From: Chloroflexota bacterium
GTDB taxonomy: Bacteria > Chloroflexota > Dehalococcoidia > UBA2979
Length of the DNA: 64,000 bases
Assembly (NCBI GenBank): GCA_002718395.1
Contig: PBEG01000016.1
Coordinates: 1,003-65,002, forward strand
Direction of reading: 5' to 3'
Of the stretch, positions 6,172 to 51,949 are shown in pieces (within the stretch, counting starts at the first letter, position 1; the number at the start of each line of letters is the position of its first letter). The notes under the pieces were generated by a model. The model was not told where the DNA came from. It made no database searches and saw only the letters and a list, made by a program, of their open reading frames with translations. Made by a program: the position numbers and the translations under genes.

Positions 6172-8148
6172 TTAAATTTTCTCTGCTACAGAAACTCTAA
6201 AACGAAAAGATGGAATAGATCCATCTGGCTTCAATGTGTCATCTATCTCTTGCAGTGAAAATACCAACCGATTTAGGTAGCCATTCTTGTCTTGTTTATT
6301 GATTAACATTGGTAGTGCTGCACATTGATGAGGCTCCCAATTAACAGATATTGAGGAATCCTTGTTTGAAATTAATATTTCACCTCCAGTTACAGGAATT
6401 GCAGTCGTGCTTGAAACAAGGCTAGAAATTGGCTTTGTATGATCAAAATCACCATTAATTCTCAAAACCTCTCTTTGTCTACCTCCGCTTAGATATGAAA
6501 TCTCAATTTCATTTCCCCAGAAATCTGGTAAAAGAGTTAAGTAACCGACTCTCAGAAAATACTTGCCTCTCTTCCAATTTGGGAATTCATAATTGAGAGT
6601 AATCATTGGCTTTTGTCTTGAAATTGACAATCTTTTTTCAATATCTCCTAGAGCTGTATTGTGACTAGTTATTAATGTTATTGAAGATTTATCACTAATT
6701 ATCTCTGGCTCAACAACTTGTAGGTCAGATATTTTCTGGCCCTCAAAAAATCCCTGAGATTGAACGCCTCCAGTATAGAAATCTGCACCCAACAATATTG
6801 AATCGAAATAACCATGTGGCAATGTTCCAAATGCAGGATTATCAAATTTTGAAAACTGTAATTTATTAATAGTTAGGCCTTTTCTTAGGTTAAGGGATGC
6901 AATAACGTCCTTTGTGGATAATTTAAGTATTGTGTTCTCCTCATCAGTCGAATATTCAAAATTACTGTCATGATTTTCACAAGAATCATCGATTTCAGTT
7001 TTCGTATCAGTAGTTTTATCCCTAATTTTTATATTTGAATCAATGTGTTCATTGATCTGATGAATTTGTCCTACCGCTTTGTCCCATCTGTTTTTAGTTA
7101 TATGAGTTCTTAAATCACTCGACCATAAATCACATAGCCGTCTCTTTAAATCTTTGGATGCTCTGAGCTCAGAATCATCCATCATTTTATTAAATATCTG
7201 GTAACACATTGTATTAATCCATACATCATTCCGCCCTGATAGCGCCCAACGTGTAATATTGTATTTGGGCTGTTTCTTTACAGGAGCAGGATTTGCTGAG
7301 CTTACCAATATTCGAGCCTTTGTGTCTTGAGATGCAATATCAGGCATTATCTCTGAAGGAGTTGACCAAGTAATATCTCTATTTTTTGTCAAGTAAATCA
7401 TCAATTCTTTGATCCTATTCCATTCACCATGTGGGTGAATTGTTGACTCTGTATTGAATCGTCCAGGTCTATAATCAAAACATTCAGCATCATTTGTATA
7501 GAAAGGGACAATACCCATTTGAGAAGACTTATATTTATCAAAAAAATCAAGGTAGCTTTCAAAATTAATATCACCATGAGCAAATTGCTGGAGTTTTTGA
7601 AAAATAAATGAATTAGACCATAGAACAGGCATCTCATAGTTTGAAGGACTGAGAGCTTTGTTAGGCATCAGGCCATCCCACTCTTGATCATATTTAAAGG
7701 AAAGCTTTATGTTGCTCTCATCCATGATGAAGGAATCATATCCAACCTCATAAATTACATCTATGATACTACTAGAAAAGGCCATTTCATTGATAAGAGC
7801 AGTTTTAGGTCTTACATTCAGATAACGTTCATAAATTTCTAGACCTAAAAGATGATTCCAGTGATTGACCTCATAAGGAGTTAGAGGTGCGATCATTTGC
7901 ACGTAACCACTTCCAATCAGTTCCACTTTATCTTCATCAATTAATGATGAAAGCTTCTTGATCCAATTGTCATCAATCAAATTTATTCTCTCGAGCGTTT
8001 TTCCACTTGCTTCTATTGAAATCTTTATCCTATCTTCTTCACATAAGTCTAGAAGTGGCCAATAACATTTTTCTATAATAGATTCATGCTCATCTTCCTC
8101 TATTGATGAAAAAGAGAGATTCAAATGAAATGTGGTATACAATCTCAT
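6172..8148 (-). CDS. glycoside hydrolase family 57-like / carbohydrate-deacetylase-fold protein, function unknown (start probably at Met18 at 8148, coupled to the upstream stop)
   Basis: N-terminal TTFHLNLSFSS..EDE and later acidic motifs (ALINEMAF, YTNDAECFDYRPG) resemble the GH57 conserved regions. C-terminal half is beta-rich. Assignment by eye only. Confidence 0.35.
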   Translation of the reverse strand: MRLYTTFHLNLSFSSIEEDEHESIIEKCYWPLLDLCEEDRIKISIEASGKTLERINLIDDNWIKKLSSLIDEDKVELIGSGYVQMIAPLTPYEVNHWNHLLGLEIYERYLNVRPKTALINEMAFSSSIIDVIYEVGYDSFIMDESNIKLSFKYDQEWDGLMPNKALSPSNYEMPVLWSNSFIFQKLQQFAHGDINFESYLDFFDKYKSSQMGIVPFYTNDAECFDYRPGRFNTESTIHPHGEWNRIKELMIYLTKNRDITWSTPSEIMPDIASQDTKARILVSSANPAPVKKQPKYNITRWALSGRNDVWINTMCYQIFNKMMDDSELRASKDLKRRLCDLWSSDLRTHITKNRWDKAVGQIHQINEHIDSNIKIRDKTTDTKTEIDDSCENHDSNFEYSTDEENTILKLSTKDVIASLNLRKGLTINKLQFSKFDNPAFGTLPHGYFDSILLGADFYTGGVQSQGFFEGQKISDLQVVEPEIISDKSSITLITSHNTALGDIEKRLSISRQKPMITLNYEFPNWKRGKYFLRVGYLTLLPDFWGNEIEISYLSGGRQREVLRINGDFDHTKPISSLVSSTTAIPVTGGEILISNKDSSISVNWEPHQCAALPMLINKQDKNGYLNRLVFSLQEIDDTLKPDGSIPSFRFRVSVAEKI

Positions 8149-8149
8149 T

Positions 8150-9091
8150 TTAATTAAGTAAAGTCTTCCAAGAGCTACCCCAATGCTGATCAGAATCAAT
8201 TTCGCTCTCTAGAATCAAATCCAATGACTCAATAGCTCTAAATAAATTGTTTCTATTGATAAATTTGTAATTTCTGAGACTTATCCAGTTGTCAGGATTC
8301 CTTGTGGCTTTCAAAAGCCATTTAAAATCAGACTCATCATCGTCATAATTGAAAGCCAAAATTACTTTTTTGCCATAATATTCTGCCTCTTGCAGAATAG
8401 TCCCAAATGAGGTGATGATTATAGACGCATTGGCAATTTCAGTTTGCATATCTTCTGAATTAAAAACAAAATCAATTTCAGGGTATTTACTCAATAAATA
8501 ATCTTTTTTGTGCTTATAACCTGGCCCAATAATAATTTTCAATCTATTCATATAGTTTGAGTCATACAACAAATTAAGAACAATACTCGAAATATCGTTT
8601 GGGTCACTACCTCCAAAGGTCAGAAGAATCTTATCGTTAAGCTCTTTTTTGTATAGCTTTGGCTCTTTCAGAACTGAATAATGTTTCCCCCATAAGATTG
8701 AATTTTCTGAAATATAACTTTTCTTTATCTTATCTTTATTAATAAAGAAGGATGGAACTATAACTTCTCCAGAATGAATAGCCCACCTGTCAACCCTATC
8801 AATTATTATGGTATTTTCTTTATTTTTAAAAAAACCATCAATCATATCCATGCAATCGTATTTAGAGTCTACAAAAGCGTAACTGAAATTAAAATCATTA
8901 TGAGTTTGTTGCTTTATTATTTTAAATTTTCTCTTCTTAAGAAATTGACTCTCTATATCGTTTGTGGCCAAAAATATGGATTTATTTTTGAGTCCCATAA
9001 TCTCTATAATGTTAGTGAGTCTATACAAATGACCAAATCCTATTTCAACTCCGCCAGACGCGAAACATAGAATTTTCTCACTATGACTCAC
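8150..9091 (-). CDS. pseG: UDP-2,4-diacetamido-2,4,6-trideoxy-beta-L-altropyranose hydrolase-like (PseG family GT-B)
   Basis: N-terminal GGVEIGFGHLYRL (the GxGHxxR signature of PseG), ~310 aa. Adjacent to a NeuB-family gene. Confidence 0.6.
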   Translation of the reverse strand: MSHSEKILCFASGGVEIGFGHLYRLTNIIEIMGLKNKSIFLATNDIESQFLKKRKFKIIKQQTHNDFNFSYAFVDSKYDCMDMIDGFFKNKENTIIIDRVDRWAIHSGEVIVPSFFINKDKIKKSYISENSILWGKHYSVLKEPKLYKKELNDKILLTFGGSDPNDISSIVLNLLYDSNYMNRLKIIIGPGYKHKKDYLLSKYPEIDFVFNSEDMQTEIANASIIITSFGTILQEAEYYGKKVILAFNYDDDESDFKWLLKATRNPDNWISLRNYKFINRNNLFRAIESLDLILESEIDSDQHWGSSWKTLLN

Positions 9092-9097
9092 TTGAAC

Positions 9098-9946
9098 TTA
9101 GAAACTACTTCTTATTTTCTTCATAGGGCGAAGTCCATCAGTTGGGTCAGCCCTCCAATCTCGGTCAGCTATTTCTGAGTCTGATGGCTCCTTATTACCA
9201 TGACCATCAGCATCTATACCTTCACGGACTTCCTTAATGACAACCTCAATCTCCTTTGGCAACCAACAATGTCCCGATGAGAACTCTTCGCCTTTCTTAT
9301 CTAGATCGAGATGAAACTCTATTATGCTCGCATTCCATTTATGGATTGCTCTGTGAATCACACTAGGGCTGACTGTATGATCAGACCACCCAACATTACA
9401 TCCTGTTTTATCTCTTATCGTTTGTATTGCAGATAAATTGGCGTCTCTCAGCGGTGTCGGATATGAGGAATTGCAATGTAGAAATGTCAAGTCAGTACAA
9501 TTATTCTTATGTGCAATTTCTTTGGCATGTAATATTTCAGGAATTGTTGCCATACCTGTAGAAAGTATTAGGGGTTTCGAAGTATTTGAGCATTTCTCAA
9601 TTAATGAATCCCATAGTAATTCATAAGAAGCGATCTTAAGGAAATCTACATAGTCATCAAGAAGATCGACGGCGCTAAGGTAAAAAGGTGTGCAAGAAAA
9701 CTTTATACCTCTAGACTTAGAATGCTCATAAAGCAATGGGATATATTCCTCTGGTAACTCCCATGACTTTCTATCTCTATGATTTTTAGACTTTTCTAGA
9801 ATCTCACTTGAAAATAGTTGCTCTATTCTAAATAACTGAAATTTTACAGCATCACAGCCAATATCAGATGCACAATCAATAAATTCTTTGCATCTTTCCA
9901 GGTCATTACCATGATTACTTGATACCTCTGCAATGAAATATGTCAT
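9098..9946 (-). CDS. NeuB/PseI-family nonulosonic acid synthase lacking the C-terminal SAF domain
   Basis: FIAEVSSNHGNDLERCKEFI...AVKFQLF TIM-barrel signature of N-acylneuraminate/pseudaminate synthases. Ends after the linker (GHGNKEPSDSE) at 282 aa versus ~340 aa for PseI. Confidence 0.65.
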   Translation of the reverse strand: MTYFIAEVSSNHGNDLERCKEFIDCASDIGCDAVKFQLFRIEQLFSSEILEKSKNHRDRKSWELPEEYIPLLYEHSKSRGIKFSCTPFYLSAVDLLDDYVDFLKIASYELLWDSLIEKCSNTSKPLILSTGMATIPEILHAKEIAHKNNCTDLTFLHCNSSYPTPLRDANLSAIQTIRDKTGCNVGWSDHTVSPSVIHRAIHKWNASIIEFHLDLDKKGEEFSSGHCWLPKEIEVVIKEVREGIDADGHGNKEPSDSEIADRDWRADPTDGLRPMKKIRSSF

Positions 9947-9947
9947 A

Positions 9948-11111
9948 TTATTCCACTTCTATAGTAATAGTATTTAGAGCTAGTTGACAACGATGCTCGG
10001 CCTCACTTCGATCTTTTCCTGAAACTATAACATAACCGAATCTATCTGGATGCATCCTGATAGATGGTTGAATCTCACCTTTATCTCTAAAAAAACCAAA
10101 CTTCACAAAGCCAGGAACATTTTCTAATTCTTCTATTCCATGAATATCCTTGATGACACCTTCTTTTGGAAACCAATATCTTATTGAAGTAGCATTTCTT
10201 TTCTTAGGCTTAAGGTCTATCTCATCAATAGGAATAGAAAGTGAATGATGCATAACAATCTCTACTAAATTCACTCCCGTTGCTATTGGAACTTGATGAG
10301 TAGCAAACCAACCTCCAGATAGTCTTGCAGCAATTTCTATTACTTTTATATTTCCATTGTTATCAATAACAATGTCCCCTTTAATGATGCCCTCACTGAT
10401 ACCAATAGCCAAAGCACTATTCAGAATTATATGATCAATTTCTTCAAGTTCAGATTTACTGAGTTCTGGAGGAATATCACCACCGTCTTCGATAATATAT
10501 GGTTTGAATTGTGTCAATCTAGAATAGTTTCTTTCTGCAATTGCAGGGGTAAAACATCTTCCATCTAAAATAAAGCTCTCGGTGGAATATTGCTTACCCT
10601 CAATATATTCTTCCAAAATCAGTTTTCCTGAATCTCCCCATCTTATAGATTCTTCGAAAGCCCAATATAAATCTATATCCTGATCCAGGATTAAAACCCC
10701 TCTCGCGCCTCTTCCATCGTTTGGCTTTAAAACGAATCTTTCGTTATCACTATCCTCAATTATTCGTTTTAAATCCTGAAATGATGACAATTCATAATGG
10801 GCCGGACAGGGAATCTGATTTGCGGTGAAAGACTTTTTCATTAGTAGTTTATCTGATGCTATTTTCGCTGATTCAATCGATATTGATGGCAAACCAAGCT
10901 CAGTGGCTGTAAGTGCAACAGTGTATGGCACATCATTTGCAATTGTCATAACTCCGTCAATTGGGATTTTCTTAGAAAAGTTTTTTGACATTCTTGCTGT
11001 TTTCTCGGCATCTCTAGTAGATACTTTTATGAAATAGTCAGATAAATTAACAGAAGGAGCATTTGGATCTAAATCTGTAGCAATTGTTCTGATACCTTTT
11101 TGTTTTGCCAA
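9948..11111 (-). CDS. ATP-grasp domain ligase (carboxylate-amine ligase family)
   Basis: Pre-ATP-grasp plus ATP-grasp motifs (RFVLKPNDGRGARGVLIL, LILEEYIEGKQYSTESF, IEIAARLSGG). Confidence 0.65.
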   Translation of the reverse strand: MAKQKGIRTIATDLDPNAPSVNLSDYFIKVSTRDAEKTARMSKNFSKKIPIDGVMTIANDVPYTVALTATELGLPSISIESAKIASDKLLMKKSFTANQIPCPAHYELSSFQDLKRIIEDSDNERFVLKPNDGRGARGVLILDQDIDLYWAFEESIRWGDSGKLILEEYIEGKQYSTESFILDGRCFTPAIAERNYSRLTQFKPYIIEDGGDIPPELSKSELEEIDHIILNSALAIGISEGIIKGDIVIDNNGNIKVIEIAARLSGGWFATHQVPIATGVNLVEIVMHHSLSIPIDEIDLKPKKRNATSIRYWFPKEGVIKDIHGIEELENVPGFVKFGFFRDKGEIQPSIRMHPDRFGYVIVSGKDRSEAEHRCQLALNTITIEVE

Positions 11112-11163
11112 TTTATAGGCAGGGGCTTGTTCAGCTCCTGCGCCAACTATTAATAAATGCTTT

Positions 11164-11892
11164 TCAGGAGAAATAAATGCCTCCGTTTATATTAAGGGTT
11201 TGCCCTGTAATATAATTTCCATCTTCAGCTAGAAAGAATGCAAGTGAAGCAACATCAGAAGGGTCGCCCAATCTTCCAAGAGGAATCTGACTTTCTAACT
11301 CTTCCAGATTAATCGACGATAGTTCATCTTTCGTCATATCGGTTTCGATTAATCCTGGCGCTATTGCATTTGTACAAATTCCTTCATTTGAGAATTTTTT
11401 AGCCATAGATTTTGTTAGATTAATTAGAGCTGCCTTGGATGCTGCATAATGTACCTGATGAATCCCGCCCCATTGGCCACCCAATGATGAAATATTAATG
11501 ATTTTTCCAAATTTATTTTCTCTCATCTTGATAACAGCTCTCTGTGAACAACGGAAAGCACCAATAAGATTTACCGATAGCATGTTAAACCAATCGTCAT
11601 CCTCTAACTCTTCAAATAATTTGACTTGAGAAATCCCAGCATTATTTATAAGAATATCAATAGAACCATGGCTAGATTCAATTTCATCAAATGCGGCATT
11701 TACTGAAAGCGTAGAGCTAACATCAATATTAATTGCATATGCATTACCTGTGGATGCTAATTCTTCTGCTTCAATTTTTTTATCCTTGAAACCTATGAAG
11801 ACTTCGAAGTCTGATTGGATAAATTTTTCAGCAATTGATTTACCGATTCCTCTGCTAGCACCCGTAATAAAAACTCTCTTTTTTCTATTCAT
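11164..11892 (-). CDS. short-chain dehydrogenase/reductase (FabG-like 3-oxoacyl reductase family)
   Basis: TGASRGIGKSIA cofactor motif, NNAG, YAASKAAL catalytic YxxxK. 242 aa. Confidence 0.8.
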   Translation of the reverse strand: MNRKKRVFITGASRGIGKSIAEKFIQSDFEVFIGFKDKKIEAEELASTGNAYAINIDVSSTLSVNAAFDEIESSHGSIDILINNAGISQVKLFEELEDDDWFNMLSVNLIGAFRCSQRAVIKMRENKFGKIINISSLGGQWGGIHQVHYAASKAALINLTKSMAKKFSNEGICTNAIAPGLIETDMTKDELSSINLEELESQIPLGRLGDPSDVASLAFFLAEDGNYITGQTLNINGGIYFS

Positions 11893-11898
11893 TCAAAC

Positions 11899-13617
11899 TT
11901 ATCCCTTCCACATATCATCCATAGTTTGTCCAGCAAGTAGCATTGGTCTTACATCTGCTGATGGATCGATCATCACATCCAATAAGGCAGGACCTTTTTG
12001 TTCCCAAATCCATTCTATTTTTGCTCTAATATCTTCTTTTTCACTAAGCTTATTTGAATTGATCCCAAATCCATTAGCAATTGATCTAAAGTCTTGGGGC
12101 CTGAAGTCACCTGTTGTCGGATCTACACCCCAAGTTATGAGTTGAAATTGAGAAACTATTCCAAGCCTTGAGTTATTGAATACAATAATTTTGATATCCA
12201 GGTCTGAGTCTTTCAAGAATGCTAACTCCTGAATATTCATAAGCGCAGAACCATCGCCAACAATGCATACAATTCTTTTCTCTGGTGATGCCATTGCTGC
12301 TCCGATTGAGGAAGGAATATCATATCCCATTGTTCCATGACCAGCCGAGGTTAAAAATGTGTTAGTTTTAGGCTTAAAAGGGAGATGCCTTGCTGCCCAA
12401 TGTTGATGGCAACCCACACCAGTTACTAGAATTGTTTCATCTTGAGAAATCAGGCCGGCCAGTTTATCTAAAAAGTCTCTAGGTTGTATATTATTAGATC
12501 TCTTCATAGGGATATCATCCAGTCTTTGTTCAATCATGTTTTCCATGCTTGACTTCCAGCTCGAGTCTGAGAAAGACTTATTATGTTCCAAACTCTTTTG
12601 CAAGCCTCTACAAAAAAGATTTACGTCCACATTAATTGGCCAGTCTATGTGTACTCTAGAGTTATCTAATTCTTTTTGATCATTGTTAACAGATATAACT
12701 TTTGCATTACTAGCAAAACTTGTAACCTCTGTACCAGTTTGGCGAACATCAAGCCTGGAACCTAATACTAAAAGAAGGTCACAATTAGCTATAGCAAGGT
12801 TGGCAACCTGATGGCCTGTATGACCTATATATCCTAAAAATCGCTCACTAGATGAATCAAAACTCCCAAGACCTAAGAAGCTTGATACCACTAAAGCATC
12901 CATATTCTTTGAGATAGTCTCTAGCAAACTTGAATCATGAAGAGATAAAGAGCCGTGACCTAACAATATAACTGATCTTTTTGACTCTGATATAGCCTCG
13001 AGTATGCCCTCTTCAATAATTATTTCCTCGCTTTCTGATAGTTTCTCCAGATTTGAGTTGCTTCTTGTTGGTAAATCAAATGAAGAAATTTCTGTTCTTT
13101 GAACGTCCATTGGAAAGTCTAAAACGCAAGGGCCCATTCTACCTTTCACTGTGATATCAAATGCATCTGGGACCTCTGAGAAAACATCATCAGTAGTTAA
13201 AAGACAACTAGATTTCTTTGAAATTGGCTTGGTAATATCAACTGTTGGAGTTTCTTGAAAGCCTCTCTGCCTCACTTCTAGCCGAGTAGTTAAGTCTGCA
13301 GTCCCAATTTGCCCGGTAATAACGATTAATGGAGTTGAGTCATAATATGCATCAGCAAGAGGTGAAATTACATTTGTCACGCCAGGTCCGGATGTAACCA
13401 TAACAACTTGCGGCTTATTTCTTATTCTAGAATATGCCAACGCAGCATAAGCAGAGCCTTGCTCATTGTTAAAGCATTCAATCTTAATATTAAATTTTAT
13501 ACATGCATTAATAAGAGGTGCTATTGTTCCTCCTGGATACACAAATACTCTATCTATGCCTTCCATTACGAATTTATATGCTACCCAATCAGCAATATTA
13601 TCAATATTTCTCTTCAT
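11899..13617 (-). CDS. thiamine-pyrophosphate enzyme, acetolactate synthase large-subunit-like
   Basis: Three-domain ALS architecture, 572 aa. TPP motif IVGDGSALMNIQELAF...N. Pyrimidine-binding domain at the N-terminus. Confidence 0.8.
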   Translation of the reverse strand: MKRNIDNIADWVAYKFVMEGIDRVFVYPGGTIAPLINACIKFNIKIECFNNEQGSAYAALAYSRIRNKPQVVMVTSGPGVTNVISPLADAYYDSTPLIVITGQIGTADLTTRLEVRQRGFQETPTVDITKPISKKSSCLLTTDDVFSEVPDAFDITVKGRMGPCVLDFPMDVQRTEISSFDLPTRSNSNLEKLSESEEIIIEEGILEAISESKRSVILLGHGSLSLHDSSLLETISKNMDALVVSSFLGLGSFDSSSERFLGYIGHTGHQVANLAIANCDLLLVLGSRLDVRQTGTEVTSFASNAKVISVNNDQKELDNSRVHIDWPINVDVNLFCRGLQKSLEHNKSFSDSSWKSSMENMIEQRLDDIPMKRSNNIQPRDFLDKLAGLISQDETILVTGVGCHQHWAARHLPFKPKTNTFLTSAGHGTMGYDIPSSIGAAMASPEKRIVCIVGDGSALMNIQELAFLKDSDLDIKIIVFNNSRLGIVSQFQLITWGVDPTTGDFRPQDFRSIANGFGINSNKLSEKEDIRAKIEWIWEQKGPALLDVMIDPSADVRPMLLAGQTMDDMWKG

Positions 13618-13651
13618 TATTTTTCCTAATATATGCTCAATTTTTCCTAAG

Positions 13652-14755
13652 CTAGGAAGGCTTTTTTCTTGAGCCAGTTAAAAGTAGCATTATTATTAAT
13701 AAAGTAATGTACCCATAAAATAAATTATACTCTTTCAAATTAAAGTGGACTGAAATCATAGCTAGAGTGGCTGTTATCATTGAAATGAAAATAAAAATAA
13801 TTAAAACACTTCTATCAGAAAATCCTGCATTTGAAAGAATATGATGAAAATGTTCTCTATCGGCCAAAAATGGAGATCTTAATGCAATTAATCTTCTAGC
13901 AATTGTCATTAAAGCATCAGTGATGGGAAGAAAAGCAAACCAAATTGCTGATATTGCAGTGATAATTTTTTCTTCTTGAGATAAGAAAATTAAGATCCAT
14001 GCAATTATATGGCCTAGTGCATTTGATCCATGATCTCCAAGAAAGATTTTTCTCTCGACTCCAAAAAAACCTAAATTAAATAGAAGGAAAATAATTAAGC
14101 TTGAGATAATCACTAAACCCATCATGAATATGGTGCCCTGAAAAAAAAGCAGCATAAAAATAGAGGAAACTATAACTATTGCAACTGATGCTGCCAAGCC
14201 GTCTCTTCCATCTAACATGTTAAAAGCATTACATAATCCAACCACACCCAAGATTGTAAAGGGTATGCCGAATCCACCAAGATTAACTATGCCTTGACCA
14301 AATAGATTTCCCAGATCACGAACATATATATCAGTAGTTAAGATTACAATCCAGCTTGCAAGAATTTGTCCTACCAATCTTAATGTCCAAGGTACTTCAA
14401 TTGCCTTAAGCCCGTCTAGTGTCCCTATTATCATAATTGGTAGCAAGGAGGCTATGATATAGATATAGAAAGTATTCACTCCAAAAACAAAAGCGCCATA
14501 AATGATTGAAATAAATAATATTAATCCACCAGTAAGCGGTATCGCCCCTTTATGATCCTTTCTACGACCATCTGCTTCATCTACTAAATTAATACTTTTA
14601 GCTATTGAAGAGGCAATAAATGTAATGACCAATATTCCTATTAAGCCAAGGATAAATGACTGCACTGAAATTAACGGGCCTTCTGAGTATGCGACAATAA
14701 TCACGAGGACATAAATTGATAATACTAAAAAGATACTTAAGTTTTTGAGTATCAA
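13652..14755 (-). CDS. polyprenyl-phosphate HexNAc-1-phosphate transferase (WecA/WbpL/MraY family), initiating glycosyltransferase
   Basis: About 10 TM segments. Motifs NAFNMLDGRDGLAAS, FLGDHGSNALG and REHFHH match the WecA signatures. Confidence 0.85.
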   Translation of the reverse strand: MILKNLSIFLVLSIYVLVIIVAYSEGPLISVQSFILGLIGILVITFIASSIAKSINLVDEADGRRKDHKGAIPLTGGLILFISIIYGAFVFGVNTFYIYIIASLLPIMIIGTLDGLKAIEVPWTLRLVGQILASWIVILTTDIYVRDLGNLFGQGIVNLGGFGIPFTILGVVGLCNAFNMLDGRDGLAASVAIVIVSSIFMLLFFQGTIFMMGLVIISSLIIFLLFNLGFFGVERKIFLGDHGSNALGHIIAWILIFLSQEEKIITAISAIWFAFLPITDALMTIARRLIALRSPFLADREHFHHILSNAGFSDRSVLIIFIFISMITATLAMISVHFNLKEYNLFYGYITLLIIMLLLTGSRKKPS

Positions 14756-14807: not shown

Positions 14808-15581
14808 TTAAGGCTTCCACGGTGCATTTCCACTGCTCCAGAGGCTTTCAAGATAATTTTTGTCCCTCAAAGTATCCATTGGTTGCCAAAAGCCTTGGTG
14901 TTTATATAAGTTGAGTTCTCCAACCTCAACAAGCCTATTTAGGGGCTCATTCTCCCAAGAAGTAGTATCATCATCAATAAAATCAAGACACTTTGGAGAT
15001 AGTACAAAAAATCCACCATTTATAAGGCCGCCATCTCCCTTGGGTTTTTCCATAAACTCAATAACCTTATTCTCATTATGCTTTATAGCACCAAATCTTC
15101 CTGGAGGAGCAACTGCAGTAATAGTTGCTAAATTCCCCTTTTTCTTATGAAAATCAATCAATGAGGTTATATCAATATCACTTAAACCATCTCCATAAGT
15201 GAAACAGAAAAACTCCTCATTCTTTAGATACTTTTTTAGACGCTTCAATCTCCCTCCAGTCATTGTATCTTCACCAGTATCAATCAGGGTTACTTTCCAT
15301 TCTTCGGTATGGCGCTCATGTACCTCCATATTATTATTGACCATATCAAAGGTAACGTCTGAGGTATGAAGAAAGTAGTTAGCGAAATATTCTTTAATTA
15401 CATAACCCTTATACCCACAACAAATTATGAAATCATTCAATCCATATTTTGAGTAGTGTTTCATTAGGTGCCATAGAATAGGTTTTCCTCCTATTTCAAT
15501 CATAGGCTTTGGCTTCAGTGTTGTTTCTTCACTGATCCTAGTACCTAATCCGCCTGCTAATATAACGACCTTCATGCTCAT
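14808..15581 (-). CDS. rfbF: glucose-1-phosphate cytidylyltransferase
   Basis: 257 aa, near-colinear with Salmonella RfbF/DdhA (ILAGGLGTR..KPKPMIEIGGKPILWH..GFWQPMDTLRDK). Confidence 0.9.
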   Translation of the reverse strand: MSMKVVILAGGLGTRISEETTLKPKPMIEIGGKPILWHLMKHYSKYGLNDFIICCGYKGYVIKEYFANYFLHTSDVTFDMVNNNMEVHERHTEEWKVTLIDTGEDTMTGGRLKRLKKYLKNEEFFCFTYGDGLSDIDITSLIDFHKKKGNLATITAVAPPGRFGAIKHNENKVIEFMEKPKGDGGLINGGFFVLSPKCLDFIDDDTTSWENEPLNRLVEVGELNLYKHQGFWQPMDTLRDKNYLESLWSSGNAPWKP

Positions 15582-16549
15582 TACCTTAAATTATATTCTC
15601 TTAGCTTACTTCCAAGCTTACTTTTAACATGATAATAGTTTAAAAAATAATAATACCAAATTACTAATAAGTATAAGGATATCTGATCTTTGAGACCTGA
15701 TTGATTTTCTTTGATAAATGATTTTATGACTGGAAGTGGCTTTTCATCAAACCTTTTATGGGCTTGTTGCAAAGCATGATGTGAGAAGTAATAAAAAATA
15801 TACATATACACCATAATCTTCCTGGGGATTTGTAATTGCCTTACTAGCATTAATACTGAAATAAATTGCTCTAGCTTAGGGTTAGTTGCATAAACTCTTT
15901 TGCCTCTCATTTCAGAGAAATCGTCTTTTTCACCCATTTGAACTATCGCATGAGGGAAATAATATAATGAAGTATCTATCGAATAAGAGATCAAAGCTGC
16001 AGCTGTAGTTGGATAAACGTCTCCTTTGCTTCTACTACAATAATCAATCATGAAATCATGGGCCTGATTGGTCCATATTTTAGTATTTATAACGGTGCTG
16101 CCTATGTGCGCTGTTTCACCTAAGGCATCGTAAAGATACTTATTTCTCTGCCATGAGGCATCTTTATATATTTGACCATCTGAATCATTTACAGACATTA
16201 CTATCAAAGAATATCCATTCCTCTTTTCAAGAAAAGAATATAACTCCTTAAGCCTTTCCTTGATTAAATAATCCTCATCACTTATCACATGGAGATATTT
16301 GCAATTACATAGGTCTATTAACATTTTATAGTTTCTTGATATTCCAACATTTTCATTCTGCTCGAAGAATGTAATTACACTGGTCTCTTTTTTTTCTACA
16401 AAATTCTTAATCTTCTCTTCTTGTGAATTTGAAGAAATAATTATTTGATCAAATATATTTAATTCCAGTGCTTGTTCTATTACCTTGATAGCTGCATCTG
16501 GTCTCTTATATGTTGGTATACCAAGTGCTAACAAACTTTGCTTAGACAT
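15581..16549 (-). CDS. family 2 glycosyltransferase
   Basis: GIPTYKRP N-terminal GT2 signature and DxD-type acidic region. 322 aa. Confidence 0.7.
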   Translation of the reverse strand: MSKQSLLALGIPTYKRPDAAIKVIEQALELNIFDQIIISSNSQEEKIKNFVEKKETSVITFFEQNENVGISRNYKMLIDLCNCKYLHVISDEDYLIKERLKELYSFLEKRNGYSLIVMSVNDSDGQIYKDASWQRNKYLYDALGETAHIGSTVINTKIWTNQAHDFMIDYCSRSKGDVYPTTAAALISYSIDTSLYYFPHAIVQMGEKDDFSEMRGKRVYATNPKLEQFISVLMLVRQLQIPRKIMVYMYIFYYFSHHALQQAHKRFDEKPLPVIKSFIKENQSGLKDQISLYLLVIWYYYFLNYYHVKSKLGSKLREYNLR

Positions 16550-16565
16550 AATGAAATTCTATTTA

Positions 16566-17411
16566 TTACGAATTAAGTATTTGATTAAGGTATTTTCTAT
16601 CGCCCCAGAAACTCTTTGGTTCAAATTCTCTATAGGGATATGCTCCTAAATCAAGATCAATTATTTGGCCGCTCTCATTAATCCACTTCTTAACGAGATC
16701 AACAAGCCTTGTTGGCTCCCCCTTACAAATATTTATGAACCCTAGATTAGGTTTCTTGCATATGATCAATTTTGTTAACACCTCTGTTACTTCATCAACT
16801 GATAGATAATCTAATAATTGATCACCATTTGACATTCTAAATATTTTTTCTCTATTTTTAATAGCTTCATGTAATTGATTATATATTGTCGATGATATTT
16901 GACCTTTTCCATATACGTAAAATAATCTGGCCCAAGTTATATTGAAATTTGTCTTTTTCTGTAAAGCTAAAAGCTCCTGACTCAGTCTCTTCTTTGCAAT
17001 ACCATATTTAGTGATCGGTTGAGTTTCATTATTCTCATTAATCATCCCACTACACATTCCATACTCATAGCATGTTCCTAAAACAAAAACATTATTTACA
17101 CCGCGACCAATTATTTCTCTCAGAAAATTGAGGTGTTCTGGGAGATACTCTTTAACATGTCGGTCAGAATTTACGTTAGTTATATCATTCCATGCTAAGT
17201 GCACAATGGTATCGTAATCATTAGAAATCTCATCGGGCAAAGAATCTTTTCCGCCAATTTCATATTCCTTAATTAACAGTTGCTTATTATGACCTGTACT
17301 AATGCCTTTCTTTGATCTCACGAGAGATAGGACTTCTGTGTCTGATTTCAATAAGGATTCAGTCAAATATTTGCCTAAAAAACCAGTTCCACCTGTAAGA
17401 ATTACTCTCAC
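16566..17411 (-). CDS. NAD(P)-dependent sugar reductase/epimerase (short SDR, CDP-sugar 4-reductase-like). Start GTG at 17411 overlapping the upstream TGA (GTGA)
   Basis: TGGTGFLGK Rossmann motif immediately after the GTG. YGIAK YxxxK. ~280 aa, like the RfbS/Prt class. The ORF-track start at 17459 overlaps the upstream gene by 52 bp. Confidence 0.6.
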   Translation of the reverse strand: MRVILTGGTGFLGKYLTESLLKSDTEVLSLVRSKKGISTGHNKQLLIKEYEIGGKDSLPDEISNDYDTIVHLAWNDITNVNSDRHVKEYLPEHLNFLREIIGRGVNNVFVLGTCYEYGMCSGMINENNETQPITKYGIAKKRLSQELLALQKKTNFNITWARLFYVYGKGQISSTIYNQLHEAIKNREKIFRMSNGDQLLDYLSVDEVTEVLTKLIICKKPNLGFINICKGEPTRLVDLVKKWINESGQIIDLDLGAYPYREFEPKSFWGDRKYLNQILNS

Positions 17412-18652
17412 TCTAAAATTTCTAGTGTGGGAACAGCTATAACAAATCTTCCTCCCCACTCAGATATATAATTATTTTGATCAATTACCTCTTTTGCAAT
17501 ATTCCAAGGAAATATAAATACATAGTCTGGTTTATCTTTTTTTAAGTAATCAATATCTAGTATAGGTATATGAGAACCAGGCATATACTTACCTTGCTTA
17601 GATTCTGCCATATCACATATATATGGAATTAAATCTGGTTTGACGCCAGCATAATTAAGAAGTGTATTACCTTTTGCAGCAGCGCCATATCCTGCTACTT
17701 TTTTGTTTTCTTTCTTTGCTTGCAATAAGAAGCTCAGAAAAGAATTTTTGATTTCGTCTATTTCACTCTGGAATGTTTTATATGAGTCGAGGTTGTCAAG
17801 ACCCATCTCTTTTTCTTCATTAAGAATTTTATCAATGTATTCAGCATTATTTTGTATACTTGCGTCTTTCTTACAACCGTATATTCTCAAACTACCACAA
17901 TGTGTGGGAATCTTTTCAACATCATATATCCGCAAACCATGTCTTTCGAAGATATTGATAACTGTAGTTAGAGAATAATATGAAAAATGTTCATGATAGA
18001 GTGAATCAAATTGTTTTTCTCTTAACATATTAACTAAATGAGTAAACTCGATTGTTATTGTTCCATCATCTTTCAAAAGTAGAAAAAGTCCTTTGGTGAA
18101 ACTTTTTATATCAGGTACATGAGCATAAACATTATTTGCAATTATAAGGTCAGCTTTAGATTCCTTAGATACGTCTATTGCAGTTTCCTTCCCAAAAAAC
18201 CTTTCCTCAACCCTTATGCCTTTTGATCGAGCAATTTCAGCAGTAGATTTTGTTGGCTCTATGCCTAAGCAAGGGATTTCTCTTTTAAGGAAGTTCTTCA
18301 AAAGATATCCATCGTTAGATGCAATTTCAACAACAAAGCTATTACTATCAAGAGTTAATCTTTCTATGATTTTATTGGAGTAATCTTCGCAGTGATCGAG
18401 AAAACCTTTAGATGTTGAAGAAAGATAAGCATAGTCTTCATTAAAGATAGTCTCTGGAAGCACAAAATCTTGAGTCTGAACCAGAAAACAAGACTCACAA
18501 ACGTCTACTCTTAATGGAAAATAATGCTCCAACTGATTCAAATCATTTTCAGTCAGATATGCATTAGATGGCGGCGAGAAGCCTAAATCAGCAAAACTTA
18601 TGGATAGTGGATTATCACAGTTTCTGCATTTCATTATTTTGCTCTTAGTCAT
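17408..18652 (-). CDS. NDP-hexose C-methyltransferase (TylC3/NovU family; Zn-ribbon + Methyltransf_13/14-like)
   Basis: N-terminal CxxC...CxxC (CRNCDN...CESC). SAM fold in the middle. C-terminal C-MT domain. ~414 aa. Confidence 0.65.
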   Translation of the reverse strand: MTKSKIMKCRNCDNPLSISFADLGFSPPSNAYLTENDLNQLEHYFPLRVDVCESCFLVQTQDFVLPETIFNEDYAYLSSTSKGFLDHCEDYSNKIIERLTLDSNSFVVEIASNDGYLLKNFLKREIPCLGIEPTKSTAEIARSKGIRVEERFFGKETAIDVSKESKADLIIANNVYAHVPDIKSFTKGLFLLLKDDGTITIEFTHLVNMLREKQFDSLYHEHFSYYSLTTVINIFERHGLRIYDVEKIPTHCGSLRIYGCKKDASIQNNAEYIDKILNEEKEMGLDNLDSYKTFQSEIDEIKNSFLSFLLQAKKENKKVAGYGAAAKGNTLLNYAGVKPDLIPYICDMAESKQGKYMPGSHIPILDIDYLKKDKPDYVFIFPWNIAKEVIDQNNYISEWGGRFVIAVPTLEILE

Positions 18653-18676
18653 TCAAAAAAATTTGTGTAATGATTA

Positions 18677-19918
18677 TTATGGCACGTAGTGGGGCTCTGG
18701 CAGTGGGTGTAAAAACTTACCGCCTTTTTCTAAATATAATGCTTGTTGCTCAATAATTTCATCGGCAAAATTCCACGCACATAATAATATGACATCAGGT
18801 AAGTCCTCATGAATATGTTCGGTTGGAAAAATAGGAATATGAGTACCAGGAGTTATTTTGCCGTGCTTTAATTCACTCTTATCAACAACATAATCTACAA
18901 CTGAGTTATCAATTTGACAAAATTGCAAAAGACATTGTCCCTTTCCTGAAGCGCCATAGACTGCAATCTTTTTCCCTTGTTGTTTAAGCTCAATGATTTT
19001 CTTGCTTATTGAATCTTTGTGAGCAATAGCTCTATTTGCAAATTCGTTCCATGAAGAAATTTCATATAATCCCAATTCCCTTTCTTCATCAATCAATTGC
19101 TGAACACGATTTGATATTTTCCTTGGTCCGTCTTTATGCTGAAGATAAACTCTGATTGATCCTCCATGAATCCAAATCCTCTCCACATCAAATACTTCCA
19201 TTCCAAATCTTGAATATAATTTACAAAAGCTATCAAGTGAATGATATCCAATATGTTCATGAAAGACCTGGTCATACTGCAGTTCTTCAAACATGGTTTG
19301 TAGATGTGGCACCTCTATGACTGCAAAGCCATCTTGAGAAAGTGTAATGCTTATACCTTCTGCAAATCCATGAAGATCTGCAACATGAGCCATTACATTT
19401 CTTCCGATAACAATATCAAAAGTCCCATGATTATTTAGTATTGATTCTGCGCTCTCTAAATTAAAGAAACCAGCAATAGAATTTATCCCTCGATTATTTG
19501 CTATTTCTACAATATTTTCAGCTGGATCAATTCCGAGTACTTCTGAGCCGTTATCCTTGAAAATAGATAATACGGTACCATCATTACTTGCTACCTCTAG
19601 TACTTTTGGAGCATGTTGATTTTCATTTTCATGATGTGTTTTACGAATGCTGTCATGAAACTCTTTTGCATACTTAATGACAGCATCCGAAAATCCTGTT
19701 GCATAAATATAATCCGAAAATAAATCTCCTGGATCTAGGATTTCATCAATTTGAAGATGATTACATTCTCTGCAAAAACATAGATTCATTGGAAATTTCT
19801 TCTCATTTTCAATTTCATCAATGGAATCAAGAAAACTGTCAGAAAGTGCCATTTCTTTATAATCTAAGATAACCTCAAGAGCGTCAGCACCACAAATTCT
19901 GCAATTATTTATTTTCAT
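18677..19918 (-). CDS. NDP-hexose C-methyltransferase paralog (TylC3/NovU family)
   Basis: Same architecture as the adjacent gene (CRICGAD...CREC, VLEVASNDG, C-terminal domain). ~30% identity to its neighbour by eye. Confidence 0.65.
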   Translation of the reverse strand: MKINNCRICGADALEVILDYKEMALSDSFLDSIDEIENEKKFPMNLCFCRECNHLQIDEILDPGDLFSDYIYATGFSDAVIKYAKEFHDSIRKTHHENENQHAPKVLEVASNDGTVLSIFKDNGSEVLGIDPAENIVEIANNRGINSIAGFFNLESAESILNNHGTFDIVIGRNVMAHVADLHGFAEGISITLSQDGFAVIEVPHLQTMFEELQYDQVFHEHIGYHSLDSFCKLYSRFGMEVFDVERIWIHGGSIRVYLQHKDGPRKISNRVQQLIDEERELGLYEISSWNEFANRAIAHKDSISKKIIELKQQGKKIAVYGASGKGQCLLQFCQIDNSVVDYVVDKSELKHGKITPGTHIPIFPTEHIHEDLPDVILLCAWNFADEIIEQQALYLEKGGKFLHPLPEPHYVP

Positions 19919-19968
19919 ATTAATACTCGTTTAATCTAATAAAATTCATTTGGCCTTGACTAAAATGA

Positions 19969-21066
19969 TCAAGTACCAATCCATGGTTGTCCTCTATCAT
20001 TTGCAAGCTTACTATATTCCTCTATCTGATCCATACTAAATGAAAACATGTCATGCACAGATTGCTGGGAATCATGTTTATACCATTCTGCTGTGAATCT
20101 TATGCACTCATGAAAATTAAGAGTTGGCTCCCAATCAAGCAATCTTTTAGCTTTAGTGCAATCTAGTTGAAGTAAACATGATTCATTGAATTGTTGATTC
20201 CTATCTATGGATATTTCTCCCGAACCCCAAACTGAAATAATCTCTTTTGCGACCTCGTTGACAGTTTTGGTCTCCCCAACTTTTGGTCCAAAATTCCATC
20301 CGGTGCTAAAAATATCCTGACCTGTTGATAAATGCATACCTAATAATAGATAGCCGCTAAGTGGCTCTAGAACATGTTGCCAAGGTCTAGTGGACTCAGG
20401 ATTACGAATAATTATAGGATCATCATTATTTAATGCAGTTATGCAGTCTGGGACTAATCGGAACTTAGATCTGTCTCCTCCCCCTATAACATTACCTGCT
20501 CTAGTAGAGGCAATATGCTTATTTGTGCCTCTAAAAAAACTTTCTATGTAGCTTGCAATTACAAGTTCTGCTCCTCCCTTGCTAGCACTGTATGGGTCAT
20601 CTCCGCCTATGGTATCGTCTTCGACATAGCCCTCATCTTTTTCAACATTTCTATAACACTTGTCACTAGTAATTATTACAGCAGTGCATTTTTTCTCATA
20701 GTTTCTTATTGCTTCCAAAATATTGAGTGTTCCAACAATATTTGTCTCAAATGTATAATGTGGGTTCTCAAAGCTAACTCCCACTATTGCTTGTGCAGCA
20801 AGATGGAAAATAAAATCTGGCTTAAAAGAATCTACCTCTCTCTGAACTGATTCATAATTTCTTATATCTAAATACTTATAATCAATCTTATCTGCCAGCT
20901 TTATTGAATTAAAATGATCGTCCATATACTCAGATTCAAGTGCTATACCATATACCTCAGCACCTAGCTCTTTTAACCAAAGGCAAAGCCAAGAACCCTT
21001 AAATCCTGTACATCCTGTAACAAGAACCTTTTTATTCCTGTAAACATCATTAAAAAACTTGAACAT
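19969..21066 (-). CDS. rfbG: CDP-glucose 4,6-dehydratase
   Basis: VLVTGCTGFKGSWLCLWL, IRNPESTRPWQHVLEPLSGYL and WNFGP align with Salmonella RfbG/DdhB. Confidence 0.9.
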   Translation of the reverse strand: MFKFFNDVYRNKKVLVTGCTGFKGSWLCLWLKELGAEVYGIALESEYMDDHFNSIKLADKIDYKYLDIRNYESVQREVDSFKPDFIFHLAAQAIVGVSFENPHYTFETNIVGTLNILEAIRNYEKKCTAVIITSDKCYRNVEKDEGYVEDDTIGGDDPYSASKGGAELVIASYIESFFRGTNKHIASTRAGNVIGGGDRSKFRLVPDCITALNNDDPIIIRNPESTRPWQHVLEPLSGYLLLGMHLSTGQDIFSTGWNFGPKVGETKTVNEVAKEIISVWGSGEISIDRNQQFNESCLLQLDCTKAKRLLDWEPTLNFHECIRFTAEWYKHDSQQSVHDMFSFSMDQIEEYSKLANDRGQPWIGT

Positions 21067-21945: not shown

Positions 21946-22521
21946 CTAGTAGAGAACTCTCATCATGCAGTGATCTATGATCATATGAAGATCTTCTGCG
22001 ATCTGCATATCATGAATAGGAACATTAACATTATATTGAGCAATTGAACCTAATGTTCCTCCACTGTATCCCGTCAATCCAATAGTTGTCCCACCATTTT
22101 CATTGGCATATTCAACTGCCTTGATAACATTCATCGAATTGCCTGATCCAGATATACCAAATACAACATCTCCCTCTTTGAAATGATTCTTTAGCTGCTC
22201 TACAAAAATGTCCTCATAAGAGACATCATTTGCATAAGCCATCATTGATGGAATATTGTCATTTAAGGAAAAAAACTTATATCTCTTTTGGTTTTCCTGA
22301 GTAAGGCCTTTATTGAAGTCGCAAACATAATGTGAAGCCGTAGCGGCTGAACCACCATTACCCATAATGAATATAGTCTTATCTCCATCTTTCGATTCCT
22401 CAAGAACATTCATTAGCGTATTCATGTCATCTAATGAAACTTTATCTATAGTATCTTTAAGCTTAGAAAAGTACTCCAAGATGTCATTTTTATAATCTTT
22501 ATTGTATTGAACTGCTTCCAT
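21946..22521 (-). CDS. gmhA: phosphoheptose (sedoheptulose-7-phosphate) isomerase, SIS domain
   Basis: FIMGNGGSAATASH, GISGSGNS SIS motifs. 191 aa. Confidence 0.85.
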   Translation of the reverse strand: MEAVQYNKDYKNDILEYFSKLKDTIDKVSLDDMNTLMNVLEESKDGDKTIFIMGNGGSAATASHYVCDFNKGLTQENQKRYKFFSLNDNIPSMMAYANDVSYEDIFVEQLKNHFKEGDVVFGISGSGNSMNVIKAVEYANENGGTTIGLTGYSGGTLGSIAQYNVNVPIHDMQIAEDLHMIIDHCMMRVLY

Positions 22522-36683: not shown

Positions 36684-37253
36684 TTATGGGTTATCCAATT
36701 TTTTTATGAGTTTTGCTGGATTTCCAGCAAAAAAACAGTCTTCTGGGACATTATCTAAAACAAGACTATTTGCACCAATAATCGACCTCTCTCCTATTTT
36801 TACACCCTTCATAATCGTAACATTTGCACCAATCCATACATCATCCTCAATAACTACTTCCTCTTCTTTTAAATCTATTTCTTTAGGTTGGCCTTTTGTA
36901 ATAATCTCTTTGTATTGAAGGTGTCTATCTATTGGATCTTTTGGATGTGTATCATTGTCAAAAATATTGCAATTATGGCTTATCAGGACTCTATTGCCAA
37001 TCTTTATTGATTTTCCAGACCATATATGAGTATTTCTTCCAACAAAACAATAATCTCCTATGATGATCTTGCCTCCATGACCAAGTATCATAAATAATTC
37101 AGCTCTAACATGAGTATTATCACCAATTACTAAATCTTCCTTTCTACCATTAACATTAGACATATCTACACAAGGATAGATCACGCTATTTTTCCCTAAA
37201 ATATATGGCCTTTTAGGAAATAATTTTCGAAAAATTCGCTTTAAGAAATTCAT
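36684..37253 (-). CDS. left-handed beta-helix (hexapeptide-repeat) acetyltransferase
   Basis: Repeated [LIV]GxxxxI hexapeptide units (IGDNTHV, IGDYCFVGRNTHI, IGANVTI, IGERSIIGANSLV). 189 aa, WbbJ/maltose-acetyltransferase-like. Confidence 0.75.
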   Translation of the reverse strand: MNFLKRIFRKLFPKRPYILGKNSVIYPCVDMSNVNGRKEDLVIGDNTHVRAELFMILGHGGKIIIGDYCFVGRNTHIWSGKSIKIGNRVLISHNCNIFDNDTHPKDPIDRHLQYKEIITKGQPKEIDLKEEEVVIEDDVWIGANVTIMKGVKIGERSIIGANSLVLDNVPEDCFFAGNPAKLIKKLDNP

Positions 37254-51809: not shown

Positions 51810-51822
51810 AATTGAAACAATA

Positions 51823-51830: not shown

Positions 51831-51949
51831 TAGATTTTAGTAGCTAAAACCTTATTATAGTTTAAAATTTTTCTATCTCTGTTCATTTGATGAACAGCTA
51901 CATTATAATAAGATTATTTGTTCATGCAATGAACATAAGTTCAATTAGA

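Follow-up and report, generated by a model that had tools for sequence, protein, structure and literature searches.

The stretch of DNA analysed here (the window) is 64,000 nucleotides long (contig PBEG01000016.1, positions 1,003 to 65,002, assembly GCA_002718395.1, Chloroflexota bacterium), and its minus strand carries, at 8150-13617, a cassette of five genes that we read as part of a pathway to a modified pseudaminic acid (Pse). Starting from its upstream end, the cassette encodes a 572 residue acetohydroxyacid synthase (AHAS)-like carboligase dependent on thiamine diphosphate (ThDP) and probably FAD (11899-13617), with three TPP-enzyme Pfam domains; a 242 residue FabG-like NAD(P)H short-chain dehydrogenase/reductase (SDR) of the ketoreductase type (11164-11892; adh_short_C2, 192 bits); an ATP-grasp carboxylate-amine ligase of the L-amino-acid-ligase (LAL) type (9948-11174; ATP-grasp_3/4 and LAL_C2 domains), 408 aa from its ATT start; a SAF-less NeuB-family synthase (9098-9946, 282 aa), presumed to be pseudaminic-acid-type; and a divergent PseG-like UDP-sugar hydrolase of GT-B fold (8150-9091, 313 aa). 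An earlier interpretation made from the nucleotides (the sequence-only reading) had named this set of open reading frames (ORFs) in the same terms, and all five are present at these coordinates. A sixth gene on the same strand, for a GH57/GH38-fold protein (6172-8148), starts 1 nt after the PseG-like gene and adds to the conserved module, which extends past 8150-13617; the sequence-only reading had missed both this partner and the pseB, pseC and pseF genes elsewhere in the window.

Proteins encoded by the cassette

The genes are tightly packed, with gaps of 6 nt between the ThDP enzyme and SDR genes, 1 nt between ATP-grasp and NeuB, and 6 nt between NeuB and the PseG-like gene. The listed and deposited start of the ATP-grasp gene, a TTG at 11111 (387 aa), drops an N-terminus (KxLLIVGAGxEQxPAY) that is conserved in all orthologues, and the matches of library representatives to this protein begin near target residue 20. 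Starting at 11174, where an ATT lies in frame 5 nt downstream of a GGAGG (11184), the protein has 408 aa, with orthologues at 406-424 aa; judged from this conservation, ATT 11174 rather than TTG 11111 is almost certainly the true start. From the ATT, the gene overlaps the SDR stop by 11 nt, the run from the ThDP enzyme through SDR and ATP-grasp to NeuB becomes contiguous (gaps of 6, -11 and 1 nt), and the translational coupling proposed in the sequence-only reading is borne out. The SDR sequence displays the motifs TGASRGIG and YAASK. The ATP-grasp protein, whose homologues fill 607 representative clusters at E<=1e-30, scores 54.8 bits against LAL_C2 (PF18603, cut-off 29.4) and has the L-amino-acid ligase 3VOT as its best PDB match; by fold and by its LAL_C2 domain it belongs to the L-amino-acid-ligase class, and its substrates are predicted ones.

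The best NCBIfam match of the ThDP enzyme is acolac_lg (TIGR00118), at 412 bits against a cut-off of 538, and the protein lies below every NCBIfam equivalog cut-off for acetolactate synthase (ALS). A profile of its own family scores bacterial, plant and yeast AHAS at 392-397 bits (AHAS I, 397), compared with 377 bits for PpYerE (structure 5AHK, PMC12247030), so that on profile classification the enzyme is neither an ALS equivalog nor YerE-specific. Invariant in the family are the GDG..NN motif (G454-D455-G456...N481-N482), the catalytic Glu (E52), FQE (F120-Q121-E122) and R292, the equivalent of the acceptor-carboxylate Arg R377 of A. thaliana AHAS. Specific to the family are an invariant six-residue insertion (VRQRG) beside FQE and two substitutions, of the DIPKD Lys by M170 and of W574 by F491. 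Because GDG..NN, the Glu, FQE and the Arg are kept, the enzyme probably works like an AHAS-type carboligase, and the invariance of R292 suggests an acceptor that bears a carboxylate.

Gaps of 6 and 34 nt flank the ThDP enzyme gene and leave no space beside it for a small regulatory subunit. A profile search of genome contigs with the alignment of the TPP-enzyme family returned 80 loci (L010-L089), all of them ordinary IlvB genes approximately 30-35% identical to the enzyme, and the conserved peptide patterns used in that scan are generic ALS motifs. Its orthologues, 49-77% identical, always lie within Pse-type cassettes. The scores below the ALS cut-offs, the lack of adjacent room for a regulatory subunit and the active-site changes together indicate that the enzyme is not IlvB, which supports the sequence-only reading, as does its linkage to nonulosonic-acid genes in at least 29 independent loci. 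The exact protein was also found on Tara Oceans and other marine contigs, and a tblastn search of plasmids gave no match at E<=1e-100.

The NeuB-like protein contains PF03102 only and lacks the SAF domain, as the sequence-only reading had proposed, with orthologues of 283-291 aa; the window encodes no other NeuB homologue. The SAF domain of N. meningitidis NeuB contacts the N-acetyl group of the substrate. Against the PseI equivalog the protein scores 176.8 bits (cut-off 340.25), its best PDB match is 6NCS, a 290 residue protein that is likewise SAF-less, followed by the PseI 8H2C, and the SDH and EFH metal-binding histidines align with those of its PDB relatives.

Homology of the next protein (8150-9091) to PseG is harder to see. 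It has no Pfam hit and scores 61.3 bits against TIGR03590, far under the cut-off of 153.55; a word-index homologue search returned only 11 matches, and plain tblastn gave no match in loci L007-L009. A profile built from syntenic ORFs was required to show homology. Despite the sub-threshold score, the PseG-like assignment made in the sequence-only reading is supported by three lines of evidence: an AlphaFold2 (AF2) model (pLDDT 84.6) whose best PDB fold matches are C. jejuni PseG 3HBN and 3HBM (TM 0.63-0.69), motifs invariant among its relatives (GxGH..R, at G18, G20, H21 and R24, and TFGGSDP), and a match at E=6e-9 to a hidden Markov model from 29 ORFs that occupy the same syntenic position in other loci.

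The sixth protein matches PF03065 at 69 bits (cut-off 21.2), and its AF2 model (pLDDT 86.9) resembles GH38 mannosidases and a GH57 4-alpha-glucanotransferase. Its E138 and D237 align with E123 and D214 of the T. litoralis 4-alpha-glucanotransferase 1K1W and are invariant in 38 sequences, so the catalytic dyad (Glu nucleophile, Asp acid/base) is predicted to be intact. The protein has more than 2,600 homologues and, if it starts at M18, no signal peptide. A role as flagellin glycosyltransferase was considered for it and rejected, as the gene is equally conserved in non-flagellar loci and flagellar loci have separate tetratricopeptide repeat or glycosyltransferase proteins.

Approximately 28 kb upstream of the cassette (42.4-45.3 kb), the minus strand carries pseB (44284-45285; UDP-GlcNAc 4,6-dehydratase, inverting; TIGR03589, 528.6 bits, cut-off 407.75), the aminotransferase gene pseC (43063-44238; TIGR03588, 515.7 bits, cut-off 423.5) and pseF (42386-43066; CMP-pseudaminic acid synthetase; TIGR03584, 293.8 bits, cut-off 205.7). 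With all three above equivalog cut-offs, the window encodes bona fide PseB, PseC and PseF, and this PseB is 55-74% identical to those encoded beside the cassette in other loci. No GNAT family that could represent PseH occurs among the scanned window genes. The only acetyltransferase in the window is a WbbJ-like hexapeptide O-acetyltransferase (36684-37253), and acetyltransferases are likewise absent from the loci of all six Pfam-annotated relatives. With pseB, pseC and pseF present and no other NeuB in the window, the cassette would therefore supply the missing PseG and PseI steps, plus four extra enzymes.

Conservation and modular composition

Homologues of the ThDP enzyme that are 49-59% identical occur in Methylomonas rapida and in metagenome-assembled genomes (MAGs) whose labels include Comamonadaceae, Verrucomicrobiota and Neomarinimicrobiota. 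For six of them, the neighbourhood repeats one gene order: ThDP enzyme, SDR, ATP-grasp, SAF-less NeuB, an unannotated gene of approximately 300-335 codons, and a 650 residue GH57-like protein. Identities of the proteins of these loci to those of the window are 49-56% for the ThDP enzyme, 47-53% for SDR, 40-56% for ATP-grasp, 55-63% for NeuB and 36-40% for the GH57-like protein; in other comparisons with orthologues the values reach 59-66% for NeuB and 36-59% for the GH57-like protein. Ahead of the run, the six relatives carry pseB, pseC and pseF (or, instead of pseF, a gene for a long PseF fusion) and methyltransferase genes, one to three of them in many loci; an aldo-keto reductase and a class-III aminotransferase are also frequent companions. 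Three of the six loci adjoin flagellin genes and one does not.

A scan of metagenome contigs with the ATP-grasp alignment yielded 80 further loci (40-100% identity). The counts that follow cover these 80 and the six context loci, and each includes only loci with enough flanking sequence. SDR lies directly upstream of ATP-grasp in 58 of 75 loci, and directly upstream of SDR there is a ThDP enzyme in 43 of 54, which is AHAS-like in 29 and a split transketolase (Transketolase_N plus Transket_pyr/Transketolase_C) in 14. Downstream of ATP-grasp, NeuB is found in 42/59 loci and the GH57-like gene in 30/36. Four more loci encode a transketolase or divergent TPP enzyme at some other position. In another four, a distant second NeuB paralogue occupies the position directly upstream of ATP-grasp, two of these with an Fe-alcohol-dehydrogenase homologue nearby; and two loci have, in addition, a gene of the DAHP-synthase family, a further transketolase (the second) and two Fe-alcohol dehydrogenases. 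Only 2 of 86 loci have rfbF or CDP-sugar synthesis genes in the neighbourhood of the cassette.

This distribution separates a constant core, made up of ATP-grasp, SAF-less NeuB, PseG-like and GH57-like genes, from a variable part in which C-C bond-forming enzymes of the kind usual in sugar and keto-acid chemistry are accompanied by reductases and methyltransferases. Since loci that lack a ThDP enzyme carry a second NeuB, or a DAHP-synthase-family gene with Fe-alcohol dehydrogenases, we infer that the core of ligase and synthase stays fixed while the module that supplies it with acid varies. The cassette, syntenic across phyla, is found widely among aquatic bacteria, in polysaccharide as well as flagellar loci.

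Some variants of the cassette carry additional genes. A formyltransferase and a PIG-L-type de-N-acetylase between NeuB and the PseG-like gene suggest an exchange of N5 acetyl for formyl, and other variants have a polysaccharide pyruvyl-transferase homologue beside the split transketolase (for these two features: L105, 12048-13439; L137, 5985-7166; L165, 992-2215).

Candidate pathway and competing explanations

A closely similar gene set is known from Shewanella oneidensis MR-1, where the flagellin-modification operon sfmABCDE (SO_3261-SO_3265) encodes a 290 residue NeuB-domain protein, a 581 residue ilvB-like TPP enzyme, a 255 residue FabG-like reductase, an S-adenosylmethionine (SAM) methyltransferase and a 412 residue ATP-grasp protein (Bubendorfer et al. 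2013, PMC3765264). The combination had been regarded in the sequence-only reading as one without a textbook counterpart; going by its published description, this operon is a precedent for it. All five sfm genes are needed for normal flagellin modification, and Shewanella lacks clear orthologues of PseH, PseG, PseI and PseF (PMC3765264). SO_3261 has been treated as pseI, with an unusually large cytidylyltransferase also noted (10.1101/2023.12.03.569772), and deletion of sfmA (pseI) abolishes all glycosylation (PMC3765264; 10.1101/2023.12.03.569772). The flagellin glycan consists of a 274 Da mono-N-acetyl Pse-like residue and a nitrogen-free C9H16O7 unit with 0-2 O-methyl groups (PMC3765264). 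Our literature search turned up no assignment of reactions to the TPP, SDR or ATP-grasp proteins of the cassette.

We propose, at about even chances of being right, that the five genes and the GH57-like gene form the specialised half of a modified Pse pathway in which a hydroxy-acid is attached to the sugar amine by the ATP-grasp ligase. PseB and PseC would make UDP-4-amino-4,6-dideoxy-AltNAc. The AHAS-like enzyme would add a C2 unit from pyruvate to an acceptor, either a keto-acid or an aldehyde, and the FabG-like reductase would reduce the product to a hydroxy-acid, which the ATP-grasp enzyme would activate as acyl phosphate and join to the sugar amine (later N7 of the nonulosonate), in place of acetylation by PseH. 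The divergent PseG-like hydrolase would then take off UDP, the SAF-less NeuB would condense the bulky N-acyl hexose with phosphoenolpyruvate (PEP), and PseF would make the CMP donor for the surface polysaccharide of the surrounding locus. What we infer here are the substrates, the order of steps, the attachment to N7 through an amide and how large the acyl unit is.

With no PseH in the window, N-acylation by the ATP-grasp enzyme in place of acetylation is the most economical reading. We favour it because the absence of PseH is consistent, the ligase is LAL-type, the acid-building enzymes are swapped as a module, and there is a chemical precedent in Treponema denticola. According to the passage of PMC13439194 that cites Kurniyati 2017, the flagellin glycan of this species is a nonulosonic acid (L-glycero-L-manno) with a 2-methoxy-4,5,6-trihydroxyhexanoyl group; by our own arithmetic its mass decomposes as 274 + 176 = 450 Da, with the same 274 Da core as in Shewanella. 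Synthesis of an acyl unit followed by amide ligation had already been proposed in the sequence-only reading, and the presence of pseB, pseC and pseF, the missing PseH and the LAL-type ligase speak in part for that proposal, whose chemistry is putative. Its estimate of a 2-4 carbon unit is not supported, given the C9H16O7 plus methyls of Shewanella (PMC3765264) and, as far as that passage on T. denticola goes, the methoxy-trihydroxyhexanoyl group. By arithmetic, which is not evidence, C9H16O7 fits, among many isomers, a dideoxy-nononoyl chain and also, again as arithmetic and not evidence, a reduced aceto-hydroxy-acid-type adduct of a C2 unit on 2-keto-3-deoxy-heptonate.

Several observations weigh against this scheme. 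Deletion of sfmE (ATP-grasp) leaves Shewanella flagellin partly modified, although deletion of the TPP, SDR or methyltransferase gene abolishes modification (PMC3765264, section 7), and such a partial phenotype is not predicted by a simple order in which the acid is made and then ligated. The outer unit of the Shewanella glycan is very labile in mass spectrometry (PMC3765264), which would also fit a glycosidic or ester link. Pairs of a ThDP enzyme and a ketoreductase, transketolases included, are otherwise documented for C-branched sugars rather than free acids (PMC12247030, PMC4753412, PMC9306805), and the conserved GH57-like enzyme is without a place in the model. The comparison with sfm must itself be tempered, as the cassette matches that gene set by published gene descriptions and sizes only. 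No Shewanella-named protein appears among the homologue-search matches of the TPP enzyme, PseG-like, GH57-like and ATP-grasp proteins.

Some of these points would be better accommodated if the ThDP enzyme and SDR were a pair of the YerE/YerF or ErwE/ErwF type, making an acyl-branched sugar from a keto-sugar, an explanation that we consider unlikely but the strongest of the competitors. Its product could be the nitrogen-free C9 unit of Shewanella, attached glycosidically to the nonulosonate, and ATP-grasp would then act late and in some other capacity. Acyl-branched sugars are formed by YerE-like decarboxylase-type enzymes and also by transketolases, with a ketoreductase then reducing the branch (PMC12247030, PMC4753412, PMC9306805), and the same alternation between AHAS-like enzyme and transketolase is seen in the cassette. 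The partly dispensable ATP-grasp and labile outer unit of Shewanella, whose 274 Da core behaves as if it had a free amine (PMC3765264), point the same way, as do the CDP-glucose pathway genes just upstream in the window. Yet the family profile scores PpYerE (5AHK) below true AHAS (377 against 392-397 bits) and CDP-sugar genes are near the cassette in so few loci (2/86) that the analogy to YerE drawn in the sequence-only reading finds no specific support. In addition, the conserved genes of the cassette include neither a nucleotidyltransferase nor a dedicated glycosyltransferase that could serve a second sugar, PseC needs the C4 keto group of the PseB product, and the invariant R292 suggests an acceptor with a carboxylate. 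An acyl-branched sugar would also leave the most conserved gene, that of the LAL-type ATP-grasp ligase, without explanation.

It is far less probable that the SAF-less NeuB itself builds the acid, making a 3-deoxy-2-ulosonic acid that the SDR reduces to a side chain, with the enzyme for the nonulosonate backbone encoded elsewhere in the genome. A second NeuB paralogue and an alcohol dehydrogenase do occur in the acid-building position among the four related loci described above, C9H16O7 arithmetically fits a dideoxy-nononoyl unit, and the 3-deoxy pattern of the T. denticola acyl group, as given in the cited passage of PMC13439194, is the one expected from PEP-aldose condensation followed by reduction. 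The paralogues in that position, however, form a separate distant clade (28-32% identity); apart from the conserved NeuB (59-66% identical), there is no NeuB homologue in the window or in most loci, and pseB, pseC and pseF are present in all of these; and in Shewanella the sfmA deletion abolishes all glycosylation (PMC3765264; 10.1101/2023.12.03.569772). That the ThDP enzyme is an ordinary IlvB for branched-chain amino acids, in a glycan locus by chance, can be practically dismissed: AHAS catalytic subunits are its best sequence matches in PDB and NCBIfam, but it falls short of TIGR00118 (412 versus 538 bits) and of every ALS equivalog cut-off, the 6 and 34 nt gaps exclude an adjacent small regulatory subunit, its identity to genomic IlvB is 31-34% as against 49-77% to Pse-cassette orthologues, its active site shows family-specific changes, and a split transketolase replaces it in 14 loci.

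Returning to N-acylation by the ATP-grasp ligase, the scheme can be generalised, with somewhat less than even confidence, to a large modular pathway family in which Pse is N-acylated with a custom-built, sugar-like hydroxy-acid by a constant core and an interchangeable C-C-forming module. The acid builder may then be an AHAS-like ThDP enzyme, a split transketolase or a PEP-aldolase-type enzyme, working with reductases and methyltransferases, and the core may include a GH57-fold enzyme with a new, non-amylolytic role; the same degree of confidence applies to the generalisation with these two parts. If true, the surface nonulosonates of aquatic bacteria would be combinatorially diverse, on flagellins and polysaccharides alike. 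The structure and biosynthesis of the 236-264 Da substituent of the Shewanella flagellin glycan have been a question since 2013, and the scheme offers for it a variable acid builder, an ATP-grasp amide ligase replacing PseH and a SAF-less synthase that tolerates a bulky N-acyl group. Confirmation would add a new layer of sialic-acid-like surface diversity, relevant to recognition by phage and grazers in the ocean, and would provide enzymes for making N7-modified pseudaminic acids.

Surrounding locus and comparison with known systems

The cassette is embedded in a glycan locus that forms a single long minus-strand run from 3.9 to 59.3 kb of the window, at approximately 34% GC. The locus begins with genes for YjbH, a 953 residue Wza-like exporter, a NusG paralogue, a MarR-type regulator, Wzz and rmlBDAC; an ABC transporter, pseB, pseC and pseF, glycosyltransferases, GDP-mannose and heptose genes and a Wzy-like protein come later. 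It also contains a CDP-glucose pathway, two C-methyltransferases and a WecA-like initiating transferase, the gene for which lies 34 nt upstream of the ThDP enzyme gene. No flagellin homologue was found in the window and no Maf in the locus context, nor does the window hold a second NeuB or a second TPP enzyme. On the strength of the Wza, Wzz, WecA and Wzy-like content of the locus, the modified Pse most likely belongs to a surface polysaccharide and not to flagellin. Within 6172-14755 there is no SAM-dependent methyltransferase, and tblastn with the methyltransferases associated with the cassette in other loci gave a sole, weak match, in a C-methyltransferase at 17.9-18.4 kb.

Directly downstream of pseF lies an accessory pair on the minus strand, a second ATP-grasp protein (41281-42369, 362 aa; Pfam ATP-grasp_4) and a 298 residue protein with weak ATP-grasp similarity (40388-41284). 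The pair (40388-42369) is 40-51% identical to one found inside the cassette of about a dozen loci (for example L009, L097, L101, L129, L133 and L135), which hints at a further amide-linked decoration. It is followed, also on the minus strand, by genes for a 551 residue NHL-repeat protein (38719-40374) and a family-less 450 residue protein (37254-38606).

The CDP-glucose pathway genes (14808-21066, minus strand) encode RfbF (456 bits) and CDP-glucose 4,6-dehydratase (439 bits), both above cut-off, with two tandem TylC3-type sugar C-methyltransferases and a reductase/epimerase; no E1/E3 3-dehydrase (ddhC/D) was found in the window. This gene content suggests that the product is an unusual C-methylated, possibly doubly branched 6-deoxyhexose. 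As a source of the acceptor for the ThDP enzyme, these CDP-glucose and C-methyltransferase genes are not supported by synteny (again 2 of 86 loci). A heptose-type module on the same strand (21946-24752) comprises a GmhA-like SIS isomerase, a GHMP kinase and a nucleotidyltransferase fused to a HAD phosphatase, and is followed by two SDR epimerase/dehydratases (24749-26635). The NusG paralogue (182 aa) and a small MarR/winged helix-turn-helix protein (51495-52498, minus strand), directly after the gene for the Wza-like exporter, are candidates for locus-specific antitermination, by analogy to RfaH or UpxY. Rho (1195-2577) falls in a 90%-identity cluster that includes proteins labelled Marinimicrobia and Gammaproteobacteria, the NCBI label of the MAG (MBI519xx/MBI520xx, locus tags CL779_) being 'Chloroflexi bacterium', and the locus encodes a GshA-type glutamate-cysteine ligase along with Wza, Wzz and YjbH; the Chloroflexi label of the source MAG looks doubtful.

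The yersiniose and erwiniose systems (YerE/YerF, ErwE/ErwF; PMC12247030, PMC9306805) likewise place an AHAS-like ThDP carboligase and a ketoreductase in a cell-surface glycan locus, and they too have transketolase-type enzymes as an alternative for the same kind of step. The family described here differs in being no closer to PpYerE than to AHAS, in having no conserved CDP-3,6-dideoxy-4-keto-sugar pathway, and in that an ATP-grasp ligase and nonulosonate genes always accompany the pair. With the canonical pathway of Campylobacter and Helicobacter (PseB-PseC-PseH-PseG-PseI-PseF) the window shares PseB, PseC and PseF equivalogs, a hydrolase of PseG fold that has the catalytic-His motif, and a synthase of the NeuB family that has the metal-binding histidines. 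Unlike that pathway, it has no PseH, its PseG-like and PseI-like proteins fall well short of equivalog cut-offs, the SAF/antifreeze-like domain is missing from the synthase, and four enzymes are extra (ThDP enzyme, SDR, ATP-grasp and GH57-like). The T. denticola glycan, compared by chemistry alone and as portrayed in the passage cited above, is a precedent for a nonulosonic acid with an O-methylated polyhydroxy acyl chain on its second amine.

The closest counterpart by gene content is sfm of Shewanella, which has the same gene set with similar product sizes (290, 581, 255 and 412 aa, against 282, 572, 242 and 408 aa for NeuB, ThDP enzyme, SDR and ATP-grasp here). Both systems work with pseB and pseC, and both are without clear PseH, PseG and PseI orthologues. 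Among the related loci, L007, L090 and L091 are flagellar and carry methyltransferases like SfmD, and L090 has, in the PseG position, a 587 residue CTP_transf_3 protein comparable to Shewanella's large cytidylyltransferase. In contrast to sfm, the window cassette has no SAM methyltransferase in or beside it, its gene order is different, and its context is a Wza/Wzz/WecA/Wzy-like polysaccharide locus with no flagellin or Maf; the unit here includes PseG-like and GH57-like genes. This type of cassette is thus known genetically from the description of sfm, and its polysaccharide context here is new.

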